Shown: positions 23,211 to 36,130 of the stretch, in pieces
Layout of the letters: every line of letters begins with the position of its first letter
Numbering within the stretch: the first letter of the stretch is position 1
Source: Escherichia phage CSP1C
Length of the DNA stretch: 55,550 bases
Sequence record: PQ202980
Direction: 5' to 3' (one strand)
Position numbers and translations under genes: made by a program
The notes under the pieces: generated by a model
Told to the model about the DNA's origin: nothing
What the model saw: the letters and a program-made list of their open reading frames with translations, nothing else
Database searches by the model: none

Positions 23211-23437
23211 TAGCGATCCTCGATTGCTCTAATTGTGGTTAAATCTAATTCACAGGTTGGAGGGTATCCATAAAGTCCCATTTGTTTTCCTTGTGCATTA
23301 AACCATGTGCCTGACGGATCCTGCCACTGCTTAGGTGTCTTGTGGAGAAATACTACTCTGTTTTCACCGTAATAATTAATTCTTACGCCTGTGTGAGTAT
23401 ATTTACGTTTACCTTTTGGTCTTCTTAAGTTAGCCAT
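23210..23437 (-). CDS. hypothetical small basic protein
   Basis: 75 aa; ATG 23437 overlaps dpdA stop, its own stop overlaps the clamp ATG. Confidence 0.45.
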   Translation of the reverse strand: MANLRRPKGKRKYTHTGVRINYYGENRVVFLHKTPKQWQDPSGTWFNAQGKQMGLYGYPPTCELDLTTIRAIEDR

Positions 23438-24357
23438 CAAAATAACTCCATTACACGATCACGGAATGTGCCGTCATGGGTAGCGTTAATGTTTGCAGCA
23501 ATTACACCATACGCCCATAAGTTGAAGGCAGCACGTGATTCATAGATTGTTGATAAACGTTCGTAAGTGAAACCGTTTTGCTCAAGGTATTTAAGGACAG
23601 CGTCTTGTTCAATTTCAGTTAATGTTGACACATGTTTACCAAAATGATGGCGGTCCGGTGACTTATCTGATACGCGCATTGGTCCCCACGGAGGAGTAAC
23701 CACACTTCCAAACGCTGCCGCTTGAATCCAGGAGGATGAGTCGCAGCTATACCACGGGTAACGCTCCATAATGGTCGTAGACGTAATACCAAATGCATGA
23801 AGCTTAATCTTAGGGCGACCGCTACCATCGCAAATGTATTTGTCCCACATGCGGTCCAGCCAAGTCTTAAGCGTGTCCGTTGAACGCCCTACCATGCCCC
23901 CAATGGTGATATATTCGTAGTTCTTCATGTAGTATTCAAGATAGCGGAAGTCCTCACCAAAGTGAAAGCATGGTAACGGTTTGGCGCCTCGTGCTTCCAT
24001 TTCAAGCTGGTTACGGTAGGTTTGCAGTGGGTCCCCGATACCATCAAGTACCGATGCCATTACCGCACCATCTTCTACCCGCAGAATATCTTTGTTGCGC
24101 TTGATGTACTCGCAGTATTCAACAATATCAATATGAGCACCCAAAGAGTGCGCAGAGAATGCACCGGAGTCGAGAAACACTTTAGCCCCGTCCGCACGCA
24201 TTTGATCAACATACTTCTGACGCCCAACGTAGTGGTATGATTCCAAAATATGGGGCAGATTGCGCGTGATATTTTTCTCATGCTCCGACAGCTTTTCATA
24301 ACGCTGCTGTCCAGGCATATATCCGTTTGTGTAAACTGCTGCCATAAAAACGTTCAT
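23437..24357 (-). CDS. dpdA: DpdA-like tRNA-guanine transglycosylase homologue (7-deazaguanine DNA insertion)
   Basis: 306 aa; TGT-like protein sitting beside folE/queD/queC/queE. Confidence 0.65.
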   Translation of the reverse strand: MNVFMAAVYTNGYMPGQQRYEKLSEHEKNITRNLPHILESYHYVGRQKYVDQMRADGAKVFLDSGAFSAHSLGAHIDIVEYCEYIKRNKDILRVEDGAVMASVLDGIGDPLQTYRNQLEMEARGAKPLPCFHFGEDFRYLEYYMKNYEYITIGGMVGRSTDTLKTWLDRMWDKYICDGSGRPKIKLHAFGITSTTIMERYPWYSCDSSSWIQAAAFGSVVTPPWGPMRVSDKSPDRHHFGKHVSTLTEIEQDAVLKYLEQNGFTYERLSTIYESRAAFNLWAYGVIAANINATHDGTFRDRVMELF

Positions 24358-24360
24358 GAC

Positions 24361-24567
24361 TTACTCCACGTTGTTTAAAGCTACTACTTCAATGAGATAA
24401 TTTTCTTTCTTAAAGCATTGCTCGCTTAAGATTTGTTCAACTCTAACATGTAGATCCGCATGAATTTGTTTTGCGTTACTGCTTTCAGCAATACCGTCCA
24501 TACATAACAGAACTCTGAAAGTACCTTTTTCTACAGCTCGAACGTTGAAAAAGTATTGTCTTACCAT
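24361..24567 (-). CDS. hypothetical small protein
   Basis: 68 aa from ATG 24567 with SD GGAGG; between folE terminator and dpdA. Confidence 0.4.
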   Translation of the reverse strand: MVRQYFFNVRAVEKGTFRVLLCMDGIAESSNAKQIHADLHVRVEQILSEQCFKKENYLIEVVALNNVE

Positions 24568-24582
24568 ATTTCCTCCAATGAC

Positions 24583-24620
24583 TAAAAAGCCCATACCAGT
24601 ATTATGACCGATATGGGCTT
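24583..24620 (-). terminator. rho-independent terminator after folE
   Basis: 9 bp stem AAGCCCATA / TATGGGCTT followed on the minus strand by TTTTT. Confidence 0.55.
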
Positions 24621-24638
24621 GATCTGTAAAGCTATCTA

Positions 24639-25226
24639 TTATTTACAAGCTTCAAGGAACTCCCGGCGCCATTCTTTACCAATATCGCTACCATGCTCCA
24701 GTTCTGTAGCGCCCCGGAACGCTTTGGTAATAGTAGAGCTACCACATACCTGCTTAACTCCGCGCGACTCCATGCACATATGTTTGGCGTCAATATAAAC
24801 GCATACAGCTTTCGGATTTAGGTGCTCCACAATAGCATCCGCAATCTGGTTAGTAAGTCTTTCCTGTACTTGTAAGCGACGTGAAAAAGCATCCACCACG
24901 CGAGACAGCTTACTAAGACCGACAATGCGACCGTTGGGGACGTAGCCAACCACAGCACGCCCAATAATAGGGGCCATGTGATGCTCGCAATGACTGTATA
25001 CAGGAATATCGCGGACAATGACCATTTCATTCGAACCTTCCGCACCATCTTCAAAGGTTTTAAACAATCCAGCGATATTTACATCGTAACCACCGAACCA
25101 TGTAGCATAAGCTTTAGCTACACGTGACGGAGTTTCTTGTAAGCCTTGACGCAGAGTAGGTGAAGCATGGTCTTCAATATTAAACAACAGGGACATCACA
25201 GCGTTTTCAACAGCTTTAATATTCAT
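24639..25226 (-). CDS. folE: GTP cyclohydrolase I
   Basis: 195 aa with hallmark HCEHHMAP motif and overall FolE-like sequence. Confidence 0.85.
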   Translation of the reverse strand: MNIKAVENAVMSLLFNIEDHASPTLRQGLQETPSRVAKAYATWFGGYDVNIAGLFKTFEDGAEGSNEMVIVRDIPVYSHCEHHMAPIIGRAVVGYVPNGRIVGLSKLSRVVDAFSRRLQVQERLTNQIADAIVEHLNPKAVCVYIDAKHMCMESRGVKQVCGSSTITKAFRGATELEHGSDIGKEWRREFLEACK

Positions 25227-25261
25227 GGTTTGCAGTTTCCTTGTTTGTTAATGTGGTCATA

Positions 25262-25795
25262 TTACAGGCTATAGTTTACGTGACATTTCGAAGTTTCTTC
25301 GATGGTGCATTCTACAAGTTGAACACCATGTTCGTCAAGCAGTTGCGGCCCAATTACGTTAACCATATATGCAGCTAAATTTTCCGCAGTCGGGTTGAAC
25401 GGTAAAGACACCAGCGAGTTGTCAAAGTCCCTTACATCTTGACCCGTAGTTTCGTCACAAAGTTCACAATCAACCTGAAGAGCTTTAATCAAAGGATCTT
25501 CTTCCCAATGCAGGAACTTATGATCCCAATTATCTTCCAACCACTGGCAGAGTGTAGTTTTAACCACACTAAAGTCAATCACGCGCCCGACGCGGTCCAG
25601 CTTAGCGCGCTCTTTTACTTCAACGTTAACAAGACCTCCGCCCATTTCAATTGGTACTTCTTTGACTGTTTCTTTCGGTGCAACCTTAAAGTGAAACTTA
25701 TAGTTGTGACCGTGAAGGTGACGGCACTTGCTTTCATGACCAACAACACGATGCCCAGCGCAAATTTCATGTGAACGAATTACTGTATAGCTCAT
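25262..25795 (-). CDS. queD: 6-carboxy-5,6,7,8-tetrahydropterin synthase
   Basis: N-terminal CAGHRV..HGHNY motif characteristic of the PTPS/QueD family; longer than bacterial QueD. Confidence 0.8.
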   Translation of the reverse strand: MSYTVIRSHEICAGHRVVGHESKCRHLHGHNYKFHFKVAPKETVKEVPIEMGGGLVNVEVKERAKLDRVGRVIDFSVVKTTLCQWLEDNWDHKFLHWEEDPLIKALQVDCELCDETTGQDVRDFDNSLVSLPFNPTAENLAAYMVNVIGPQLLDEHGVQLVECTIEETSKCHVNYSL

Positions 25796-26382
25796 TTTAA
25801 TACCTCTTTAGACTGTTCAATTTCTAATGCACGCTGTGCGGATGCAATAATATCTTTCAAATCTTCTACCAGACTTTTATGACCACGTTCGCCCGGCTGC
25901 AACGCCTTTTTAATCAAATGTTGTAAAGCTGGGTTAGTTGTTTTCCAAGCTTCCAAGACATCATACACGTCCACGATGCATTTTACAACATTGCCGTTTT
26001 CATCTTTACCATAAATAATTTTCTGATATTTATTCATGGGAATTTTAGATGGTTCATATTTGGTAAAAACTGCACCATTAAATGTATTACTTATGCTTAT
26101 TCCAGAAGAAGGTTGATGGTACACTCCGGAGCGAGTGTTTTCGCTGGCTTGTTTGACGTAATCATCCGCAACGATATATCGCCAGGCTATAATATCTTGA
26201 ACTTTATAAGGGCTATATTCATCCATAGCTGAACGCCCTTCTATAGCCCAATCCCATCCATGTAATAAATTCTTAACGTGTGTGCCGTTGCGCAAACGAA
26301 CTTCAAACTTCTCATTACGAAGAAAAATAGGCATTCCTTTACCGTCGTGTTGGTGCCAAATTTTATTAAGATTATCTTTCAT
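25792..26382 (-). CDS. hypothetical protein embedded in 7-deazaguanine cluster
   Basis: About 196 aa; ATG 26382 couples to upstream stop, own stop overlaps queD ATG; no recognisable catalytic motif. Confidence 0.5.
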   Translation of the reverse strand: MKDNLNKIWHQHDGKGMPIFLRNEKFEVRLRNGTHVKNLLHGWDWAIEGRSAMDEYSPYKVQDIIAWRYIVADDYVKQASENTRSGVYHQPSSGISISNTFNGAVFTKYEPSKIPMNKYQKIIYGKDENGNVVKCIVDVYDVLEAWKTTNPALQHLIKKALQPGERGHKSLVEDLKDIIASAQRALEIEQSKEVLK

Positions 26383-26383
26383 T

Positions 26384-26863
26384 TTACGCTCTCGCTGTAC
26401 GTGAATGAACTTCGTAAACAACCCAAAGGATGGCAGATGCTGTGAACTTGCTTAAGCTCATTGCTACCATTGATCCCGGATTAACAATACCTATAATACT
26501 TAAGAACACAATGGAGTCAATCGGTACAGCTACCAAAGAGCTAATAAATACACGTTGATGAAACGGCTTCTTAGTAATCGTGTATACCGCATAGTCCGCA
26601 AACTCACTGAGGGCAAAAGACGCAACTGATGCAACTACAACAGCAGGATCCCCAAATACCCAGCTAAGGATACAACCGACAATCATTGCAGGGATAACAC
26701 CTTTACCTGCGTTACGCTGTGCATAGTCGCGCAACACAAAGATAATACCTACAAAGAAAGCCATCATTGGGACTACGCCAAGCGGCGTGTTAAGCATTGG
26801 AAGGTAGGAAAAGCCCAGGTTTACGAATGTAATTGCAGCCAGATAAGCAACGATAAATTTCAT
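26384..26863 (-). CDS. putative queuosine-precursor transporter (YhhQ/DUF165-like) membrane protein
   Basis: 159 aa polytopic membrane protein from ATG 26863 (SD GGAGAA); location inside the preQ0 gene cluster. Confidence 0.5.
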   Translation of the reverse strand: MKFIVAYLAAITFVNLGFSYLPMLNTPLGVVPMMAFFVGIIFVLRDYAQRNAGKGVIPAMIVGCILSWVFGDPAVVVASVASFALSEFADYAVYTITKKPFHQRVFISSLVAVPIDSIVFLSIIGIVNPGSMVAMSLSKFTASAILWVVYEVHSRTARA

Positions 26864-26983
26864 ACTTTTGTTCTCCAGTTTTAACAGCGTTATTCGCTGG
26901 TTGTTGGGTTTAAAAGCTTTAGTAGTATAGTTGGGTTCCCGCACCCTAAACAATGCGCTAGCGGTGCGGTTTTCGCGGTAAGA

Positions 26984-27691
26984 TCAAGCTTTGCTAATAA
27001 ATTCGCTGTACCCTTTAGCACGCAGTTTGCACGCAGGGCATTCACCGCAACCATAGCCCCAGTCATGCAGAGTGCGACGGACGCCGTTATAACACGTATG
27101 GGACTGCTCAATTACTGTGGTTAAGAAGCCAACCTTATCCGCCAGCTCAAACGTTTCTGCTTTATTTAAACGCATAAGCGGGGTAACAAAATGAATATCT
27201 GTTTCATATCCAACGTTTAACGTAGCTTCAAGAAGATCAACAAACTGCTGGCGACAATCCGGATAACCGCTATAGTCTGTTTCACAAACGCCTGTAACCA
27301 CATATCGGGCTCCAACTTTCTGCGCGTAGGCGTGCGCGGTAGTCAGGAAAAGAGCATTACGGTTTGGCACAAAGCTAGCCGGAAGGTTTTTGTGCTGTTC
27401 GTGATGTTCGTTAACATCACCTTCGTTCCCGATTAAAGCGCTATTACCAATCTGTTTCAAAGCAGGTAATTCAAAGACAACAAATGGGACATCGTGCTCT
27501 TTACAGATCTGTTCAGCGCAAGCCAATTCCACAGTGTGACGTTGACCGTATGCAAAACCAATAGCGTAAACCTTATCATAGTTATTAAGTGCAAGACCTA
27601 AACAGGTCACGCTGTCCTGGCCGCCAGACAGGACGACAACGGCGGAGTTATGATTTTTTACAGGGAATACCAGTTTATCTAATTTATTCAT
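26984..27691 (-). CDS. queC: 7-cyano-7-deazaguanine synthase
   Basis: PP-loop VVVLSGGQDS and C-terminal Zn-binding Cys cluster CYNG..CGECPAC; ATG 27691. Confidence 0.85.
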   Translation of the reverse strand: MNKLDKLVFPVKNHNSAVVVLSGGQDSVTCLGLALNNYDKVYAIGFAYGQRHTVELACAEQICKEHDVPFVVFELPALKQIGNSALIGNEGDVNEHHEQHKNLPASFVPNRNALFLTTAHAYAQKVGARYVVTGVCETDYSGYPDCRQQFVDLLEATLNVGYETDIHFVTPLMRLNKAETFELADKVGFLTTVIEQSHTCYNGVRRTLHDWGYGCGECPACKLRAKGYSEFISKA

Positions 27692-27692
27692 T

Positions 27693-27881
27693 TTAGAAAC
27701 CTTTAAGGCTAATATTAAGATTAACGACCACTTGTTCAACTACATCATCAGATGTCATCTGACGCTTATGAATTTCAAGCTCCGAATGTATGTTCTTGGA
27801 TGCAGCACGACAGATAGCGTCATTCAGCTCGTCTTGTAAACGTTGCATCTTCTGCATAAGAATCACAGTCTCTTCATTCAT
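27693..27881 (-). CDS. hypothetical small protein (paralogue of 27874..28086)
   Basis: 62 aa, SD AAGGTG; shares ELN.AI..A....EL.I pattern with neighbouring gene. Confidence 0.4.
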   Translation of the reverse strand: MNEETVILMQKMQRLQDELNDAICRAASKNIHSELEIHKRQMTSDDVVEQVVVNLNISLKGF

Positions 27882-28086
27882 CTTCTACACCTTTAATATC
27901 ACAAGGATTGATTGTTACAGTTGACATCACAATTGGATGATTGCGTGCCCCGATTGTACTAACGTGATTAATATCTAATTCTACATGCACTCCCTGCATG
28001 GTAGCGTGAGCAATTGCAGAATTAAGTTTTTCTACCAGCTCAGTGATCATTTCCTGATGCTGTTTCGCTTCTTCCAAAGTGATCAT
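27874..28086 (-). CDS. hypothetical small protein (paralogue of 27693..27881)
   Basis: 70 aa, SD GAAGGTG; alternative ATG at 28050. Confidence 0.4.
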   Translation of the reverse strand: MITLEEAKQHQEMITELVEKLNSAIAHATMQGVHVELDINHVSTIGARNHPIVMSTVTINPCDIKGVEDE

Positions 28087-28342
28087 TTCTTTTCACCTTC
28101 ACTAATGTTTGTTTATAATCCATACCTTCAAGGTCAACTTCTGCCATTTCACAAAAGTTATCATCTTCCCAGTATGATGTCCATTTAGTTTGACTGTCCA
28201 TCAACGTTGGCTCATACTCGAATCCGTAAACTGTACCGTCTTGATCCGTAGCCAGCCACCGTACCCATTCAGGGACATCAAGCTTATTGCCAAAGTATTC
28301 AACTTCTTTAGTATGAACAACCTGACTTAATACACGCATCAT
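28040..28342 (-). CDS. hypothetical protein, member of 3-copy paralogous family
   Basis: 100 aa; VPEWVRWLATDQDGTVYGFEYEPT and EVDLEGMDYKQTL shared with ORFs at 49334 and 50172. Confidence 0.45.
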   Translation of the reverse strand: MMRVLSQVVHTKEVEYFGNKLDVPEWVRWLATDQDGTVYGFEYEPTLMDSQTKWTSYWEDDNFCEMAEVDLEGMDYKQTLVKVKRNDHFGRSETASGNDH

Positions 28343-29046
28343 TCCACCCCGATATATTTGTGAACCTGAAGCTGCAACGTGTACCCGTGTTTCATACAGC
28401 TTTTGACAACCGCTTGGATGTTACTGTGGTTAAGGTCTTCATCCTGCTCGTCCATTGGCTGTAAATATATCTTACCCTTGAACCCCTTCGGAGGTCTAGC
28501 GATAAATGGTGTAGCTTGATGATCTAATGCTTGAAGAGGCAAACCATCTTCCACGTTTACACAGCACGCTTTAAGTACATATTTAAATGCATTAGCGCGG
28601 TACAGCACAGAAGGATGAATCTTTGAGGTCTTGGGGCTACATACAATGACAGGTAGCTGGGAAAAGTCCTTCGGTAAAGGCATAGACCCATTAGTTTCAA
28701 TCTGTACCAAATACCCGCGCGATAACAGTTGTTCGACAAAAGGGTTAATTTGCTGACGGAACGGTTCACCACCAGTGATAACCACAAGTGAGGTGCTATT
28801 GCCTGATTCCAGCTTACGGCTTTCGATTAAACGCATGATATCAACAATGTGGTAAAGAGAACGACCTACAGTATAATCAGTATCACAGCCCGGACATTGC
28901 AGGTTACACCCAGCAAGTCGCACAAATACAGCAGGCTGGCCGCAGAATGGACCTTCACCCTGAATGGTAGAGAATACCGAATGCACGTCTAAATACATAT
29001 CGTTTTCTTTAGAACGAGACTCGGGAGCTTGTTGATTAATATTCAT
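28339..29046 (-). CDS. queE: 7-carboxy-7-deazaguanine synthase (radical SAM)
   Basis: Cys motif CNLQCPGCDTDY and VVITGGEP typical of QueE. Confidence 0.85.
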   Translation of the reverse strand: MNINQQAPESRSKENDMYLDVHSVFSTIQGEGPFCGQPAVFVRLAGCNLQCPGCDTDYTVGRSLYHIVDIMRLIESRKLESGNSTSLVVITGGEPFRQQINPFVEQLLSRGYLVQIETNGSMPLPKDFSQLPVIVCSPKTSKIHPSVLYRANAFKYVLKACCVNVEDGLPLQALDHQATPFIARPPKGFKGKIYLQPMDEQDEDLNHSNIQAVVKSCMKHGYTLQLQVHKYIGVE

Positions 29047-29061
29047 CTTAAATCCTCTAGT

Positions 29062-29090
29062 GAAAAAGAAAGCGCCTCATTGGGCGCTTT
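29062..29090 (-). terminator. rho-independent terminator
   Basis: AAAGCGCC tcattg GGCGCTTT stem followed on the minus strand by TTTCTTTTTC. Confidence 0.6.
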
Positions 29091-29115
29091 CATTATAACG
29101 TGATATGTTTTGATA

Positions 29116-29919
29116 TTACAAGCCGTTCAGGGCTTCCGGTACTGGTACAGGTACGCGACCAGTCACACCATTAAATTTCTTCCAGCGTGCATACTGGGTT
29201 TTAACGGTATCTTCGTTCAAACCATGGCGACCAGCCAGGTTCAGAACATAAGAGATCGGAGCAGGCTGACCCAGCGTAGCGCTAATCTGGTCCATCAGAG
29301 CCCAGGCACGACCGCAGGAAGTTTCCGGTTGTGGACGACGAACACCGTTCTGTTCCGGCATACGATTAGCTTCTTTTTCTTTCTCGCGGAGCTCTTTAGC
29401 GCGTGCTTTTTCCGCTTCTTTTTCTGCCTGTTTTGCAGCACGGATCTTGTCTTTGAAGCCTTTAATAGTAGCTTCCAGACCATCCACCAGACCCTGGGCA
29501 GAAGTTACAGCACCGGACAGGTCTTCACCTTTAGACTTCTTAACGACAGCTTTCAGCTCTTTCAGAGCTTCTTTAATGGTCTTCAGGTTTGCAGATCCCT
29601 GAGTTTCTGCTTCCGTGATTTGTTCAACAGTGCTTTCGTCGGTGACGGTAGCTAAAGAGTTTTTCAGGATTTCAGCAGCGTTAGCAATCGCATTAAATTT
29701 GTTTTCCGCTTCAGTGCGGATTTCAGCTTGTTTCTTTTCAGCGGCAGCTTTTTTCTCTGCTTCTTTTTTCTCTTTTGCTACGCGTGCAGCTTCAGCGGCA
29801 GCGGCTTTCTTAGCTTCTGTATCATTCACAGTAGCTTCTTTCTTTGCAGGTTTAGCAGATTTTGCAGCGGCAGCAGCGGCAGCAGCGGCAGCGGCTTTTT
29901 TATCTTCAATGTTGCTCAT
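29116..29919 (-). CDS. Ala/Lys-rich low-complexity protein with conserved C-terminal domain (histone-like / DNA-binding candidate)
   Basis: ATG 29919 (track start 29928 is GTG); polyAla run plus KKAAAEK repeats; C-terminal TVKTQYARWKKFNG domain shared with ORF 45820..46434. Confidence 0.5.
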   Translation of the reverse strand: MSNIEDKKAAAAAAAAAAAKSAKPAKKEATVNDTEAKKAAAAEAARVAKEKKEAEKKAAAEKKQAEIRTEAENKFNAIANAAEILKNSLATVTDESTVEQITEAETQGSANLKTIKEALKELKAVVKKSKGEDLSGAVTSAQGLVDGLEATIKGFKDKIRAAKQAEKEAEKARAKELREKEKEANRMPEQNGVRRPQPETSCGRAWALMDQISATLGQPAPISYVLNLAGRHGLNEDTVKTQYARWKKFNGVTGRVPVPVPEALNGL

Positions 29920-30600: not shown

Positions 30601-32577
30601 TTAGAACGGAACGTAATCCGGATCATCTACTTGTACAGGGTTAACCACATTGTTCACCGTTATGCCTTGCGTATTCTGTGAAACAATATCATCCCAGCTC
30701 ACATCATCATTATAGCTTGGACCTTCTGTTGTTCCATCCTGCCCGTATACTTTAACTTGAATAGCTTCGTCGTCCTGTGGAGCTTCAAACTTACCGAAAC
30801 ACGTACCATCATAATCGTAGTTCAATATCTCAGGCCATTTCTTATTGGTATGAACTTTGATGTATTTCGGTGTTTTAAGCATTGCAGCAACATCAAGAGC
30901 TTCTTCAATAGTTTGTGGTAAAGGAAGATGCGTCCTTTTCTTCCACCATGCAACCGCTTTACGACCTGCCCAGTCACCATGAAGTAGAGCTACCCATTCG
31001 CTGAATATTTTACTACCGCAATAATAAGTCACCTTCATTGTTGGAGGTTTGGAGCTGTCATTGCGTTTAGTGTGCTTCGCATAAGTAACATGCGTAACTT
31101 TAAAGTCTTCAACTACAGGAATGTCCTGCTTAATCAATGCTTCGGTACTTGCTGCCTTTTTAAGTTTGGTTTGGAACTTAAACTCATGACCGCAAAATCC
31201 TTCTTTAACATAATCCGTTCCACGTAGTCTGAATCCCTTCAAATATAATTGTTGAACTTGTTCCTGTGTAACGCTGTCCATAGGAATTGGTGCAAAGCCA
31301 CCGCAATAGCGAGCAGATGCATGATTATACGACCCGCACACATCGCATTCTTTAACCGGAGCAGTACCAGCACCTTTTTCGCCCGGGCGCTTGGGTTTAA
31401 CAGGGTCGTTAATAGGTCCCAAACGGCGCGTATTACCGCTGAAATCCAGTACAAGGCAGTTCTGCTTAGGACTTGCTGCAATAGCTTGCAAGCGACCTTC
31501 CTGCGTGGAAAGATCAAAGCCCTCCGCATATACCGGACGCGTACCGCGACCCAACATCTGAACCCATAGCACCGCCGAGGCAGTTGGGCGAAGCATGATA
31601 ATCAGATCAAGCATTGGATGGTCGAAACCTGTGGTTAAGACGTTGTTGTTTGTCAGCGCTCGAAACTCTCCACGCTTGAACTTTTCAATAATTTCATCAC
31701 GCTCTTTTGCATCAAGCTTTGAGTGAATACATCCGCAACTAATACCCATATCGTTCAGCATATCACACGCATCTTTAGCGTGTTCAATACCAGAACAAAA
31801 TATAAGCCAGCTTTGACGGTCTTCACCACATTCAATGGCTTCCTCAAGTGCGCGGAGTGTTGCGTCGTCGCGGTTTACCGCACTTTGTAGCTCACTCTGG
31901 ATAAACTCACCGCCGCGTTTCCCTACACCATTGAGGTCTAGTTCCATCTTTGTACGCTTTGGCACAACCGGAAGCAAATAGCCTTGCTCCAGGAACCAGT
32001 TAAAGGCTTCAGGGGTAGTTGCATCAAACGTTACTTTATCAAATAAAGCATCATCGTCTTTGTTTTCCTTAACAATTGAACCGTAACCCAGTCGGTAAGG
32101 TGTAGCAGTAAGACCGATAATTTTTAAATACGGGTTAACTTCACGCAATGCTGCAAAGAACTTCTTATACATTGTTGCATCACGCGGACTAATAAGGTGC
32201 GCTTCATCCACAAAGATTAGATCAACCTTGCCGAACTTTTTAGGATGCTTAGCAACAGATGCAATCCCCGCAAATGTGATAAGATTATAGACTTCTTTAC
32301 GCTTCAAACCTGCGCTGTAAATACCTGCTGGCGCTTCAGGCCAGACTTTCATTAATTTATCATAGTTTTGTGCAATTAACTCTTTGACGTGAGTTAACAT
32401 CATTACGCGCTGGTTTGGATACCATTTATAAAGCAGATCGAGGAACCCCGCGATAACGAGCGATTTTCCTGTCCCTGTTGGTAACAGGATCAAAGGGTTC
32501 CCCGCGTTACCCTTTTCAGCATCAAAATAGCGGAATACGCTATAAACTGCTTCCTGTTGATAATCGCGGAGCTGCAT
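30601..32577 (-). CDS. SF2 DEAH-type DNA helicase
   Basis: Walker A PTGTGKSL and DEAH box FVDEAHL; ATG 32577 (track start is TTG); C-terminal Cys-rich region. Confidence 0.8.
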   Translation of the reverse strand: MQLRDYQQEAVYSVFRYFDAEKGNAGNPLILLPTGTGKSLVIAGFLDLLYKWYPNQRVMMLTHVKELIAQNYDKLMKVWPEAPAGIYSAGLKRKEVYNLITFAGIASVAKHPKKFGKVDLIFVDEAHLISPRDATMYKKFFAALREVNPYLKIIGLTATPYRLGYGSIVKENKDDDALFDKVTFDATTPEAFNWFLEQGYLLPVVPKRTKMELDLNGVGKRGGEFIQSELQSAVNRDDATLRALEEAIECGEDRQSWLIFCSGIEHAKDACDMLNDMGISCGCIHSKLDAKERDEIIEKFKRGEFRALTNNNVLTTGFDHPMLDLIIMLRPTASAVLWVQMLGRGTRPVYAEGFDLSTQEGRLQAIAASPKQNCLVLDFSGNTRRLGPINDPVKPKRPGEKGAGTAPVKECDVCGSYNHASARYCGGFAPIPMDSVTQEQVQQLYLKGFRLRGTDYVKEGFCGHEFKFQTKLKKAASTEALIKQDIPVVEDFKVTHVTYAKHTKRNDSSKPPTMKVTYYCGSKIFSEWVALLHGDWAGRKAVAWWKKRTHLPLPQTIEEALDVAAMLKTPKYIKVHTNKKWPEILNYDYDGTCFGKFEAPQDDEAIQVKVYGQDGTTEGPSYNDDVSWDDIVSQNTQGITVNNVVNPVQVDDPDYVPF

Positions 32578-32579
32578 AA

Positions 32580-33488
32580 TCAATCTTTCCCGTAATAGTT
32601 AGCCACTTGATAGTTTTGACAACCAACTTTTTGACCCTGCGTATCTACTGCAACGGAATGGAAATTGCAATACCATGTTCCATCATCTTTTGGCTCAAGA
32701 AATTGACATGTGCGACAGTTTACTTCCGGCATAGTTTTACGCCAGCACAATGAGGCGTGATCGCACCATTTGCATTCGAAGAAGGTAGAGTCTTTGAATG
32801 CACGGTCAGGAATATCCGTAGCAATAGCAATCTGCACACCACGATCAATATACATGTCCGCAGTGACCGGATCAAATGGAATAATTTCTGCGTAAACTTC
32901 ATCATCGTTCTTGTTTACAGCAAGATATAACGCTGCGCCAAGTCCTAGCTTTCGCATGTACACGTTCATCTGTACATAGTGCTCAGGTTTAGCTTCTTTG
33001 ACACCTTTAGCTTTCAGTTTCTTGAAAGACTTATCGTTGTGGGTCTTCATTTCAGTAAGCACAGGCATCCCAGGCTGAACGTCCGGACAACCTATAACCA
33101 CACCATCGCAGGAACCGCCAAAGTGTCCGCCAGCTTCGCTAATACGGAACTGGTGTCCGTTTTCATCCTGCTGGTAGACCTGCATACCTGCCGCAAGAAG
33201 CATAGCAATGAAACGCGCTTCTTCCAGATGTCCGCGGTTAAATAGGCGGAGCTGGCGTCCATCGAACTCTTTACGAGTAGCCCAGCGATACCCGTAGAAC
33301 AGCTTGCGAGCACATTGTTGTCCAATAAGGGAAGCACCTAAGTGACTGCGGTTGCCGCTTTCGGGGCGATATGCGTCTTCAATTGTGGGAATGACTACGC
33401 CAAGATATTTACGGTAAGTCCCACCCTGATCTTTTTGCACACCGTCATTGATTGCTTGAAGTGTTTTTTCTGCAATATAAATAGCCAT
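32580..33488 (-). CDS. PD-(D/E)xK nuclease with C-terminal Cys cluster (Cas4/RecB-like exonuclease)
   Basis: DGVV...LTEMKTH D/E-K arrangement plus four C-terminal Cys (CKWCDHASLC, CRTC). Confidence 0.55.
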   Translation of the reverse strand: MAIYIAEKTLQAINDGVQKDQGGTYRKYLGVVIPTIEDAYRPESGNRSHLGASLIGQQCARKLFYGYRWATRKEFDGRQLRLFNRGHLEEARFIAMLLAAGMQVYQQDENGHQFRISEAGGHFGGSCDGVVIGCPDVQPGMPVLTEMKTHNDKSFKKLKAKGVKEAKPEHYVQMNVYMRKLGLGAALYLAVNKNDDEVYAEIIPFDPVTADMYIDRGVQIAIATDIPDRAFKDSTFFECKWCDHASLCWRKTMPEVNCRTCQFLEPKDDGTWYCNFHSVAVDTQGQKVGCQNYQVANYYGKD

Positions 33489-33499
33489 TGGAGTACCTT

Positions 33500-33527
33500 A
33501 GAAAAATAAGCCGTCTTTCGACGGCTT
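33500..33527 (-). terminator. rho-independent terminator
   Basis: AAGCCGT ctttcg ACGGCTT stem followed on the minus strand by TTATTTTTC. Confidence 0.55.
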
Positions 33528-33552
33528 AGGGACACTACAGAGGGAGGTTAAC

Positions 33553-34422
33553 TTACTGCTGCCACGGCGGGACTGCTGCTTGTGCCGGATGCGGTTCAGC
33601 TTGCTGCTGTGGCTGCGCTTGCTGCTGCGGTGCTGCTGCCTGACCCGGCTGTGCTACCTGCTGCGCCCATGGCTGCTGAGCTGCTTCCGGCGCTACTGGC
33701 TGTTGTACCGGAGCTTGCTGAACTGGCTGCTGCGGCGCTGCGTTTTGAGCAGGATTATCCCACGGCTGCGGTGCGGCATTCTGCCACGGTTGAGCTGCTG
33801 CGCCCTGCTGCGGTGCTGGTTGCTGAACAGGCTGCTGTTGCTGTACCGGAGCTTGCTGCTGTACAGGTGCTTGCTGTTGCTGAGCAAACGGGTTAGCTGC
33901 TGGCTGCTGCGGCGCTGCGCCCGGGAAAGTTGGCTGCTGTGCTGGCGCACCTGCACCGAACGGGTTAGCTACTGCTGGAGCGCCCATTGATGGAGCCTCT
34001 GCTGCTTTTTCTGCATACTTAACCGGATCGTTGATGTTAGCGTAACCGTTCGGCTCGTTGCTGTCTTCATAACCTTCCTGAGAACGAACTTTCAGACGCA
34101 GGTTCAGCGGAATGTTATGCAGTTGAGCAGGAGTATCCCAGCGAATTACACCTACTGCGTGGGAAAGTGCGCCCAGTTGCTCATAAGCGATACGCACAGT
34201 ATCTTCATTGTCGTTGATGACGTTGTAGCGAGCGAAGATTTTACGACCTTTAGCAAAACCGTCAATGATGCTAAACGTTACCTGGATCGCCATACCGCCA
34301 TTTTTGGTCGGTTTAAATTCAGATGCTTCAATTACTGCTTTATACCAACCTTTCGGCAATGCGCCGTAAGAAGGTGCTTGATAGCTGCTCGCGTCAAAGT
34401 GGAAATTAGTTGGCATAGTCAT
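33553..34422 (-). CDS. SSB-like (DUF669-type) protein with Q/P/A-rich C-terminal tail
   Basis: Globular N-terminal ~150 aa, then ~140 aa low-complexity tail with repeated PW motifs; adjacent and coupled to Sak4-like ATPase. Confidence 0.5.
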   Translation of the reverse strand: MTMPTNFHFDASSYQAPSYGALPKGWYKAVIEASEFKPTKNGGMAIQVTFSIIDGFAKGRKIFARYNVINDNEDTVRIAYEQLGALSHAVGVIRWDTPAQLHNIPLNLRLKVRSQEGYEDSNEPNGYANINDPVKYAEKAAEAPSMGAPAVANPFGAGAPAQQPTFPGAAPQQPAANPFAQQQQAPVQQQAPVQQQQPVQQPAPQQGAAAQPWQNAAPQPWDNPAQNAAPQQPVQQAPVQQPVAPEAAQQPWAQQVAQPGQAAAPQQQAQPQQQAEPHPAQAAVPPWQQ

Positions 34423-35150
34423 TAGTTGATACCTTTCATTTTGTTGATAACAGAACCTAAGTGTGGGACTTCAACCGCATCTAAACGTCCCGAACGATCC
34501 TTAGCGATTGTATTAAAGTCCGGTTGAGTTTGCAAGTAACGATATGAGTTACCTTGCTGATCCTTATTTACATTCAGACGAAACACTTCGTCGAAGAAGT
34601 AAGGGAGCATTTGCCCCAATTTGGACCCAGGCATAGATGGAGCATACGCGGTAACACCGGAGACTTCATCTTTGTCTTTGCCCATTTTAGCAGACATATA
34701 AACATGTTTGCCAGGAATATCGCGAAATTTACGGATCAGATCTTGCATCTTTTCAAGCAAAGTACCATAAGCTTGACGAGGATCTTTTGTTCCTTTTTTC
34801 GCATTGTTTAAACATTGTTCAGCAATTTCGCTCAAGCTGTCAAGCGCAATAGAATCGAAATACTGCTGGTTAGCTGGAGTTATACACCACTGATAAGCAG
34901 CTTCAACGTCCTCCAGACATTTAACTTCAATAACTGGGATATCATAAACGATCGGCAATCCCATGTTACCATAAACGCGATTAAGGTTTTCCGCTGCAAT
35001 AGATAACAGACCGGACTCTGCGCTGATCAAAATTGGTTTAGGTAGTGTGGCTACAAGGCTGGTTTTACCCATACCCGCTTCACCGTAAACCAGAATTTTA
35101 ACGCCTGTGTCTTGCACTACTTGTGAAGACATTTTAATTTCAATGGCCAT
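34422..35150 (-). CDS. Sak4-like RecA-fold ATPase (single-strand annealing / recombination)
   Basis: Walker A GEAGMGKTS near N-terminus, ~240 aa, typical pairing with a DUF669/SSB-like gene. Confidence 0.65.
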   Translation of the reverse strand: MAIEIKMSSQVVQDTGVKILVYGEAGMGKTSLVATLPKPILISAESGLLSIAAENLNRVYGNMGLPIVYDIPVIEVKCLEDVEAAYQWCITPANQQYFDSIALDSLSEIAEQCLNNAKKGTKDPRQAYGTLLEKMQDLIRKFRDIPGKHVYMSAKMGKDKDEVSGVTAYAPSMPGSKLGQMLPYFFDEVFRLNVNKDQQGNSYRYLQTQPDFNTIAKDRSGRLDAVEVPHLGSVINKMKGIN

Positions 35151-35215: not shown

Positions 35216-36130
35216 TTAATCTAATGCCTGATCACTTTCATCGCGGAAATGCATAAAGTTAGCAAAACGCGGTTTATCTTTAACGCCATGAGGAAAGTGT
35301 TTATATGAAATAGTCCGACCTTTAATCTTGTCAGGGTTATTCCAATAATAAATCTTATCCTCTTGCGTTAGTTTACCAGGACTAACGTTGATTGTATTGC
35401 CAGTCTTAACGTCTTTACAAACAAGCGTCCCAATCATACCGTTAGGAACTTTATTTTCCTGATGTGAAGATCGTGTAGTCCTTCCCAGCTCGTTAACGGT
35501 AGCTTCATTAAGATTAGTTTCACCCTCAATAATATCGAGGACAATAGCGTCTTCCTGAATAAAGCGTTTAATACGAAGATATCCACCTTCGCGAACTGTA
35601 CCTCGCCCATGCTTATAAGGCTTTTCAGGATCGCGGATAATAATACCTTCATAACCCATATCAAGCCAGATGTTTTCCCAGTAGAGCAACTCTTGCAAAG
35701 ACTTAACCACATACATTGGCACAACTTGCAGATCGAGCAGTTCACCTTTCGCGTGCTGTGTGGTTATAAAATCTTTCATCATGTTGTAGCGTGCTTCATA
35801 GCCCATCTCTGCAACACTTTCAGCACACAGATCAAAAATGTGCCATTTCAGGAACGGTTCGCCTTCAATTGTGTTTACCGCACTGGTTGTTTTACGGCAC
35901 AGGTCGGGATCTGTTTCAACTCCGGCCGCAAGCTCACCGTCATAGCCCATGTACTGTGGACCACTGAAAATCGCGCTTGTATGGCGGTTTTTAAACAGCT
36001 TTAAGCTGCGCCCTACTATCTGCCCGTCCGGATTTAAACCGCGCACACCGTCGATTTTAGGCAGTATGCAGCACGGAAACTTAATCTTTTCTTCAACCGC
36101 GTCAGTTGCTAAATGTGGTTTAAAAGACAT
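35216..36130 (-). CDS. ATP-dependent DNA ligase
   Basis: Adenylation motif KIDGVRG near N-terminus; ~300 aa. Confidence 0.75.
   Translation of the reverse strand: MSFKPHLATDAVEEKIKFPCCILPKIDGVRGLNPDGQIVGRSLKLFKNRHTSAIFSGPQYMGYDGELAAGVETDPDLCRKTTSAVNTIEGEPFLKWHIFDLCAESVAEMGYEARYNMMKDFITTQHAKGELLDLQVVPMYVVKSLQELLYWENIWLDMGYEGIIIRDPEKPYKHGRGTVREGGYLRIKRFIQEDAIVLDIIEGETNLNEATVNELGRTTRSSHQENKVPNGMIGTLVCKDVKTGNTINVSPGKLTQEDKIYYWNNPDKIKGRTISYKHFPHGVKDKPRFANFMHFRDESDQALD

Follow-up and report, generated by a model that had tools for sequence, protein, structure and literature searches.

Through their C-terminal tips, SSB proteins gather and order the proteins of replication, repair and recombination on ssDNA, and to our knowledge bacteria and many phages are taken to share, almost without exception, an acidic tip that ends in Phe. 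A gene of Escherichia phage CSP1C (sequence record PQ202980; the window, that is, the whole stretch of DNA analysed, has 55,550 nucleotides) raises the question of what is served by an SSB tail of another make, long, nearly uncharged and punctuated by Pro-Trp motifs. An earlier note on this DNA had proposed that the tail may be a novel protein-recruitment module. The proposal is supported in part: the evolutionary evidence that the C-terminal PPW motif is functional is strong, and a recruiting role is plausible. The long uncharged Q/P-rich stretch is not new in kind. The explanation that we favour, with a probability of about 60%, is that the gene encodes a DUF669 SSB whose disordered Q/A/P linker presents a PPW docking peptide for phage partners, the Sak4-like annealase being the likeliest of these.

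A DUF669-type SSB with a Q/A/P-rich tail

The gene and the two parts of its product are as follows:

33553..34422, minus strand: DUF669-type phage SSB, complete coding sequence of 289 aa plus stop (= CSP1_074, annotated 'hypothetical protein')
34003..34422, minus strand: predicted OB-fold ssDNA-binding domain, aa 1-140 (from DUF669 and AF2)
33556..34002, minus strand: predicted intrinsically disordered Q/A/P-rich tail, aa 141-289 (from composition, pLDDT ~50 and dN/dS)

Segment 32000-36500 of the window is 100% identical to Cronobacter phage CSP1 (KY982929.1), a Seurat-like phage, and 93-97% identical to the E. coli Seuratviruses (Seurat, CAjan and BASEL Bas21-25). Residues 8-131 of the protein match Pfam DUF669 (PF05037; E 6.6e-14, 52.6 bits, the cut-off being 21), the full length matches PHROG 13350 (function unknown), and weaker matches lead to PHROG 6015, 378 and 7778, all named 'single strand DNA binding protein'. 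No match to Pfam SSB (PF00436) was seen at E<=0.01. The AF2 model, built from a 144-sequence alignment, has a pLDDT >95 over aa 1-140 and an OB-type topology, b1-b2-b3-helix-b4-b5, with predicted elements at 25-38 (b1), 44-52 (b2), 61-69 (b3), 73-90 (helix), 106-113 (b4) and 121-129 (b5). The case has been made that DUF669 is a family of phage SSBs that takes the place of other SSBs (PMC4889955). Judged by the domain match and the predicted fold, the product is the phage's own DUF669-type single-stranded-DNA-binding protein, and the earlier note was right in calling it SSB-like. Sequence searches of the PDB, with the single sequence and with a profile, returned no true homologue; the sole match, ZipA, was rejected as a match of P/Q linker composition. 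In the protein cluster collection the exact sequence is absent, and its relatives stand there without a name or as 'hypothetical'.

Gln (45), Ala (38) and Pro (31) make up 77% of the 149 tail residues, among which four are acidic, none is basic and no acidic cluster is found. The Q/P/A richness and the near-absence of charge reported from the first reading are thus borne out, while the tail, put there at 140 aa, measures ~149 aa by the domain and AF2 boundary; its pLDDT of ~50 agrees with disorder, for which a prediction had been recommended. To describe canonical SSB tails as short and acidic, as the note did, is inaccurate: that of E. coli SSB combines a nearly uncharged, disordered linker of 56 residues with an acidic tip of nine, which binds at least 17 partners (PMC7145534). 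What does set the phage protein apart is its end. The acidic C-terminal tail typical of DUF669 proteins (PMC4889955) is not found here, nor is a tip of the DDDIPF type, the last 14 residues being EPHPAQAAVPPWQQ. The following elements were located in the tail:

33886..33966, minus strand: three Pro-Phe-type motifs, NPF at aa 153-155 (33958-33966), TFP at aa 165-167 (33922-33930) and NPF at aa 177-179 (33886-33894)
33814..33883, minus strand: weak, imperfect 18-nt tandem repeat (6-aa, PVQQQA-like; from TRF and alignment)
33784..33792, minus strand: internal QPW motif 1, aa 211-213
33760..33768, minus strand: internal QPW motif 2, aa 219-221 (QPWDNP block)
33667..33675, minus strand: internal QPW motif 3, aa 250-252 (QPWAQQVAQPGQ block, common to Nonagvirus JenK1)
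33556..33597, minus strand: C-terminal tip EPHPAQAAVPPWQQ, aa 276-289, with PPW at 33562-33570; the element conserved family-wide
33580..33990, plus strand: spurious antisense ORF of 136 aa in CTG/CAG-rich DNA
33582-33896, plus strand: spurious antisense ORF of 104 aa in CTG/CAG-rich DNA
33693-33956, minus strand, another frame: spurious ORF of 87 aa

The tail Trp residues (213, 221, 252 and 287) are all four preceded by Pro, in the contexts QPWQN, QPWDN, QPWAQ and PPWQQ exactly as first quoted; the Phe motifs NPF, TFP and NPF, upstream of them, had been missed. In composition-preserving shuffles, all four Trp followed a Pro in 157 of 100,000 cases, and six of the seven tail aromatics did so in 30 of 100,000. 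The DNA of the tail has a GC content of 64%, that of the window 45%, and uses CAG 33 times; as had been noticed, this CAG/CTG-rich DNA creates spurious ORFs in several frames (136 and 104 aa on the plus strand, 87 aa on the minus strand). We rejected these alternative-frame ORFs as genes: their products are L/C/R-rich junk, and codon-level selection supports the SSB frame only.

Constraint on the tail and on its C-terminal tip

A tail that was variable or absent in close homologues, without effect, had been named as the observation that would speak against a recruitment module. What we found is a tail that is almost invariant there. Nine Seuratvirus SSB proteins are 98-100% identical and 287-295 aa long, and their differences in length come from in-frame indels only, all inside one PVQQ(Q) repeat over the 18-nt tandem repeat. 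The aromatic motifs, Phe included, are invariant in an alignment of 10 Seuratvirus-group proteins, in which the last 18 residues are also identical. In Salmonella phage STP-SP5 the SSB is 78% identical; PFP repeats have been added to it, but it retains the same three QPW motifs and the same last 18 residues; PFP/PF motifs occur at equivalent positions in STP-SP5 and Hafnia phage yong3. Seuratvirus, yong3 and Nonagvirus share one order of motifs: PF motifs, QPW, QPW-x-NP, QPWA..QPG and AEPH..PAQ..PPW. Within the genus (8 Seuratviruses, each comparison resting on 10-21 synonymous differences), the dN/dS of the tail by the Nei-Gojobori method is 0-0.07, and against STP-SP5 it is 0.21 for the tail and 0.14 for the folded domain. 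These codon comparisons indicate that the tail is under purifying selection and is translated in the SSB frame.

How far the tail reaches beyond close relatives was followed in two samples. A word-indexed protein search with the single N-domain gave one match only, and HMMER and a profile search were used instead. With the OB domain as query, the HMMER search, which was exhaustive, retrieved 5,214 cluster representatives (E<=1e-3), whose best 149 usable members, 37-63% identical in the OB domain, form the first sample. The second consists of 116 further proteins from an independent profile search (4,581 hits, E<=1e-8); about 260 of these 4,581 sequence clusters were examined. In the first sample the last Trp stands in a PPW in 115 of the 149 proteins and in a PW in 129, it lies 1-11 aa from the C-terminus in 145/146, the tip has the consensus Q-x-x-[TV]-P-P-W-[AMQ]-[QRK], and internal Trp residues are mostly in QPW. 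The second sample holds mostly short proteins (148-175 aa) with a C-terminal TPPW[KQR]R(K); a Trp falls within the last 14 aa in 113 of the 116, as a PW in 102 of those 113. When 107 short forms are aligned, only 11 columns are invariant, and the tip Trp is among them. Pooled, about 90% of the distant relatives have a PW tip, and the tip Trp is never the last residue.

The linker behaves differently from the tip. Tails are between about 8 and 208 aa long, with a bimodal distribution (n=264): 114 of the 264 proteins have tails <40 aa with exactly one Trp, 138 have tails >=80 aa with 3-4 Trp, and r = 0.77. The comparison of tail lengths that had been called for thus gives a tail that is near-invariant in close homologues and, in distant ones, a linker that varies ~25-fold with the tip kept. 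With their low pLDDT (~50) and tails of 8-208 aa, these proteins have the architecture of a disordered linker of variable length that ends in a conserved peptide. The conserved unit is accordingly the non-acidic C-terminal PPW on such a linker rather than the long tail itself, and the family-wide replacement of the acidic tip by this motif is the unusual feature of the protein.

These data bear directly on the possibility that the tail is neutral low-complexity sequence, grown by replication slippage in CAG/CTG-rich DNA, in which the PW motifs are incidental. The weak 18-nt tandem repeat, the slippage-type indels of close relatives and the ~25-fold variation in tail length across the family are what this account predicts. 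However, it leaves unexplained the strong purifying selection on the tail, the aromatic motifs that are invariant in close relatives, the enrichment of PW above shuffles and a tip retained in about 90% of >260 distant relatives; moreover, a tail of 64% GC in a genome of 45% GC implies selection for amino-acid composition. Shuffles, alignment, dN/dS and tip conservation largely refute neutral slippage, which we consider highly improbable.

Individual members illustrate the range of tips. The SSB of JenK1 ends in ..KTPPWKRSTEGDDAAQ and that of PaMx25 in ..TATPPWAQPQQ, with four QPWQQ besides; those of phage 73 and RcSpartan end in ..AAPWGQR (with GAW/GGW repeats) and ..GGPWGQR, and that of 1N2-2 in ..GKPPWAQ. 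Intermediate tips occur in true DUF669 relatives, ..DDGAAAPWEE in BP63 and ..GDDVPPFE in P0042, and a few true relatives keep acidic tips, ..DDDSDLPF in P0100 and ..FNDDIPF in L009. Two short-tailed SSBs with a PPW tip (modules L036 and L038, from metagenomic/bacterial contigs) belong to prophage-like elements that also carry an integrase or else a LexA-like repressor, in the order (DUF3799 exonuclease)-AAA_24-DUF669-RusA-SF2 helicase-primase; virulent Queuovirinae are thus not the only carriers of the PPW tip.

The long forms invite a second explanation, namely that the tail self-associates, aromatic 'stickers' in a Q/P/A 'spacer' giving cooperative ssDNA coating or condensates with no docking of specific partners. 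Their pooled composition (A 24%, P 22%, Q 20%), with 3-4 Trp at a median spacing of 27 aa and Trp at 2.7% of a low-complexity, uncharged sequence, is in keeping with this, as is the oligomerisation of PrgE, the best structural neighbour, through a terminal tail. One report (10.1101/2022.01.17.476650) also credits the linker of E. coli SSB with non-nearest-neighbour cooperativity and phase separation. Yet the 114 relatives with one Trp in a tail <40 aa have no multivalency, and it is the Trp and its PP context that are best conserved; the [TV]PPW[AMQ] context and the fixed distance from the C-terminus exceed what stickers need. That the short forms have one Trp only, at a strict position, speaks for a specific peptide motif rather than for generic stickiness. 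We therefore find self-association unlikely as the whole explanation; in the long forms it could exist alongside partner docking.

The tip might also act in autoregulation, by folding back on its own or a neighbouring OB fold and there competing with ssDNA or fixing the oligomeric state. Other SSBs provide precedents in the C-terminal Phe of T7 gp2.5 and in the E. coli SSB tip (discussed in PMC5928155), a Trp could mimic a stacked base, and the AF2 model shows a slight rise in pLDDT and a 3-residue helix at the tip. But AF2 with deep alignments gives no docking of the tip, which stays at low confidence (a pLDDT of 63 in the long form and 51-58 in the short form), and a tail that is not acidic could hardly mimic DNA electrostatically, as the tails of the known cases do. 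We consider this account quite improbable. Docking of partners, the reading that we prefer, fits the pattern of conservation, and a recruitment role of the tail is plausible on that ground, although the low pLDDT of the tip counts against this reading as well. In the literature searched, whose coverage was incomplete so that absence is no proof, no description of a PPW SSB tip was found; the tip is probably a tag, as yet undescribed, by which partner proteins dock.

The recombination operon and candidate partners

The SSB gene lies in a minus-strand operon in the order ligase, Sak4, SSB, Cas4-like exonuclease and SF2 helicase:

35216-36130, minus strand: ATP-dependent ligase
34422..35150, minus strand: Sak4-like RecA-core annealase (AAA_24), whose TAA stop overlaps the SSB ATG (TAATG, 34420-34424)
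33507..33528, minus strand: terminator-like hairpin, 9-bp stem and T run, 25 nt past the SSB stop
32580..33488, minus strand: Cas4-domain PD-(D/E)XK exonuclease (PHROG 1990, E 1.4e-117)
30601..32577, minus strand: SF2 helicase, 658 aa, with the last eight residues DDPDYVPF at 30604-30627

The phage also encodes a primase/helicase, RNase H and a DNA polymerase. The hairpin, a strong one, sits inside the operon, ahead of the exonuclease gene, and PaMx25 has an annotated terminator at the equivalent position; its presence suggests that Sak4 and SSB may be expressed above exonuclease and helicase.

The SSB gene adjoins that of Sak4, and an AAA_24 (Sak4) gene lies directly upstream of the SSB gene in every related module with an identifiable neighbour. 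In the HK620 system, both the loading of Sak4 on SSB-coated ssDNA and the stimulation of recombineering depend on the last six residues of the SSB (NDYPPF; PMC5928155). Because of the upstream adjacency, the translational coupling and this precedent, our best guess is that Sak4 is the partner of the PPW tip, with exonuclease and helicase as alternatives. The HK620 precedent serves as an analogy only, since neither BLASTP nor hmmscan nor hhalign linked the HK620 SSB to this family. Likewise, Sak4, exonuclease or RusA, and helicase occur together in most modules, so that the neighbourhood does not single out one partner.

Within the window, terminal motifs of this sort are confined to the SSB and the SF2 helicase. 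The helicase ends in ..VDDPDYVPF, which resembles the host SSB tip (DDDIPF), and the SSB in PPW; a host-type SSB tip has thus been placed on the helicase. Ends that are [DE]-rich and close in [IV]PF were seen in 8 of the 12 related modules examined (besides the window, L029, L030, L008, L011, L025, L036 and L038). They read ..FDDDIPF in JenK1 and ..LDDDIPF in PaMx25, and in metagenomic modules ..DELDEIPF, ..DLDGDIPF, ..DPNFVPF, ..DDCEVPF and ..DDDDDIPF; the exact DDDIPF is present in the helicases of JenK1, PaMx25 and L038. The extension is absent from phage 73, RcSpartan, BP63 and 1N2-2. The helicase tip may be a mimic of host SSB that gives access to the host's SSB-interacting proteins, or else a ligand of the phage SSB. 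In phage T7, C-terminal tails on the SSB (gp2.5) and on the helicase (gp4) mediate contacts, and both are acidic and end in Phe; here, in contrast, acidity is confined to the helicase tail (...DYVPF), the tail of the SSB being neutral and based on Trp. A Seuratvirus homologue of this helicase, 'Heli22', triggers Retron-Eco11 (PMC12746101). No description of phage helicases with a DDDIPF tip was found in the literature searched, of which coverage was incomplete.

Some relatives depart from the common layout. Phage VogelGryff carries a homing-endonuclease-like insert between the exonuclease and the helicase of an otherwise collinear module (L019 575-1081), JenK1 has another between RNase H and ligase (L003 201-731), and STP-SP5 has an unannotated ORF (L002 254-793) at the position of the JenK1 insert. 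In one metagenomic module (L008 3936-4892), the Cas4-like exonuclease ends in ..EIAADWVPW, another aromatic terminal peptide.

A proposed docking mechanism and its counterparts

In the mechanism that we propose, the OB fold (aa 1-140) would coat the ssDNA arising from replication and recombination, and the disordered linker (aa 141-289) would project ...HPAQxx[VT]PPW, followed by 2-6 residues, at the C-terminus. The PPW tip would be a docking peptide that brings partners to SSB-coated ssDNA, the role that the DDDIPF tip has in bacteria; because its code is Trp-centred and non-acidic, the proteins that it serves would probably be those of the phage and not the host SSB interactome. In the long forms, internal QPW and NPF motifs may be weaker, extra docking copies that raise valency. 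The docked partner would most likely be the Sak4-like annealase encoded upstream, or else the exonuclease or helicase of the operon. Bacterial SSB tips are recognised by the side chain and the alpha-carboxylate of the terminal Phe, in a pocket with a basic rim. As the Trp is never terminal and the peptide is not acidic, recognition of the alpha-carboxylate cannot apply here unchanged, from which we infer a separate, phage-specific interaction, the binding of proteins by the tip and the identity of the partner being likewise inferred.

The bacterial SSBs, of which E. coli SSB (tip MDFDDDIPF; PMC7145534) is an example, have the same general plan, an OB core, an uncharged disordered linker and a short conserved C-terminal peptide that acts as a partner hub. 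In spite of this likeness, the phage protein differs from them in several respects: (i) its linker is ~2.5x longer and A/Q/P-rich, whereas the bacterial linker is G/Q/P-rich; (ii) its tip is neutral, with Trp at the centre and 2-6 residues after it, whereas the bacterial tip is acidic with Phe as its terminal residue; and (iii) the phage linker itself contains further copies of the tip motif.

The only experimental precedent is the HK620 SSB (HkaK), which too is a phage SSB encoded beside Sak4 and ends in a Pro-Pro-aromatic hexapeptide, NDYPPF (PMC5928155). It nevertheless has 195 aa only, with a charged and non-repetitive tail; its aromatic is the last residue and has acidic neighbours; and its module is without the exonuclease/helicase part. 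DUF669 proteins were generalised as acidic-tailed by Kazlauskas et al. 2016 (PMC4889955); the SSBs described here belong to the same domain family, but this clade ends in PPW, in short forms often with basic residues added (TPPWKR). PrgE of plasmid pCF10 (PDB 8s4s) is 11% identical, has no long C-terminal tail and carries instead an N-terminal tail for oligomerisation.

The evidence on both tips can be joined into a bolder scheme, which we hold to be doubtful. Here the PPW code would replace the acidic tip in a large DUF669 clade of phages and prophages; the 4-7 P-W/P-F motifs of long-tailed members would act in a BRC-like manner, each docking one Sak4 protomer, so that the tail nucleates an annealase filament; the DDDIPF code on the helicase would plug into the host SSB interactome; and the two codes would keep recombination and host hijacking apart. 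The BRC repeats of BRCA2 are several short, aromatic-centred motifs in a disordered region, each of which binds a RecA-family ATPase core. The parallel is a mechanistic analogy only, as there is no homology and the FxxA consensus is not matched (the +3 position after the Trp is Q or P).

The PPW-tipped SSB is a widespread and apparently undescribed form of linker-plus-tip SSB, and if the docking reading is right, its Trp-based tip would be a second kind of recruitment peptide, orthogonal to the acidic one. It could explain why some phage annealases work only with their own SSB, which bears on the porting of Sak4/SSB recombineering pairs between hosts, and it would provide a ready-made orthogonal tag to tether proteins to ssDNA. 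Seen beside the helicases with a DDDIPF tip, it suggests a way in which phages may hold their recombination proteins apart from those that interact with host SSB.

The surroundings of the recombination module yielded some minor observations. A cluster for 7-deazaguanine (queuosine-like) DNA modification, comprising FolE, QueD, QueC, QueE and a DpdA-like transglycosylase, adjoins the module at 49933-56415 of KY982929.1, about 23437-29919 of the window, an arrangement that is known for the Queuovirinae. Window position and KY982929.1 position add up to 79852, which is more than the record length of 60222, so that the window is circularly permuted with respect to KY982929.1. The host label of KY982929.1 is Cronobacter sakazakii and that of phage SD04, which is 97% identical, is Aeromonas schubertii, the other close relatives being E. 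coli Seuratviruses; the host labels of CSP1 and SD04 may deserve checking.
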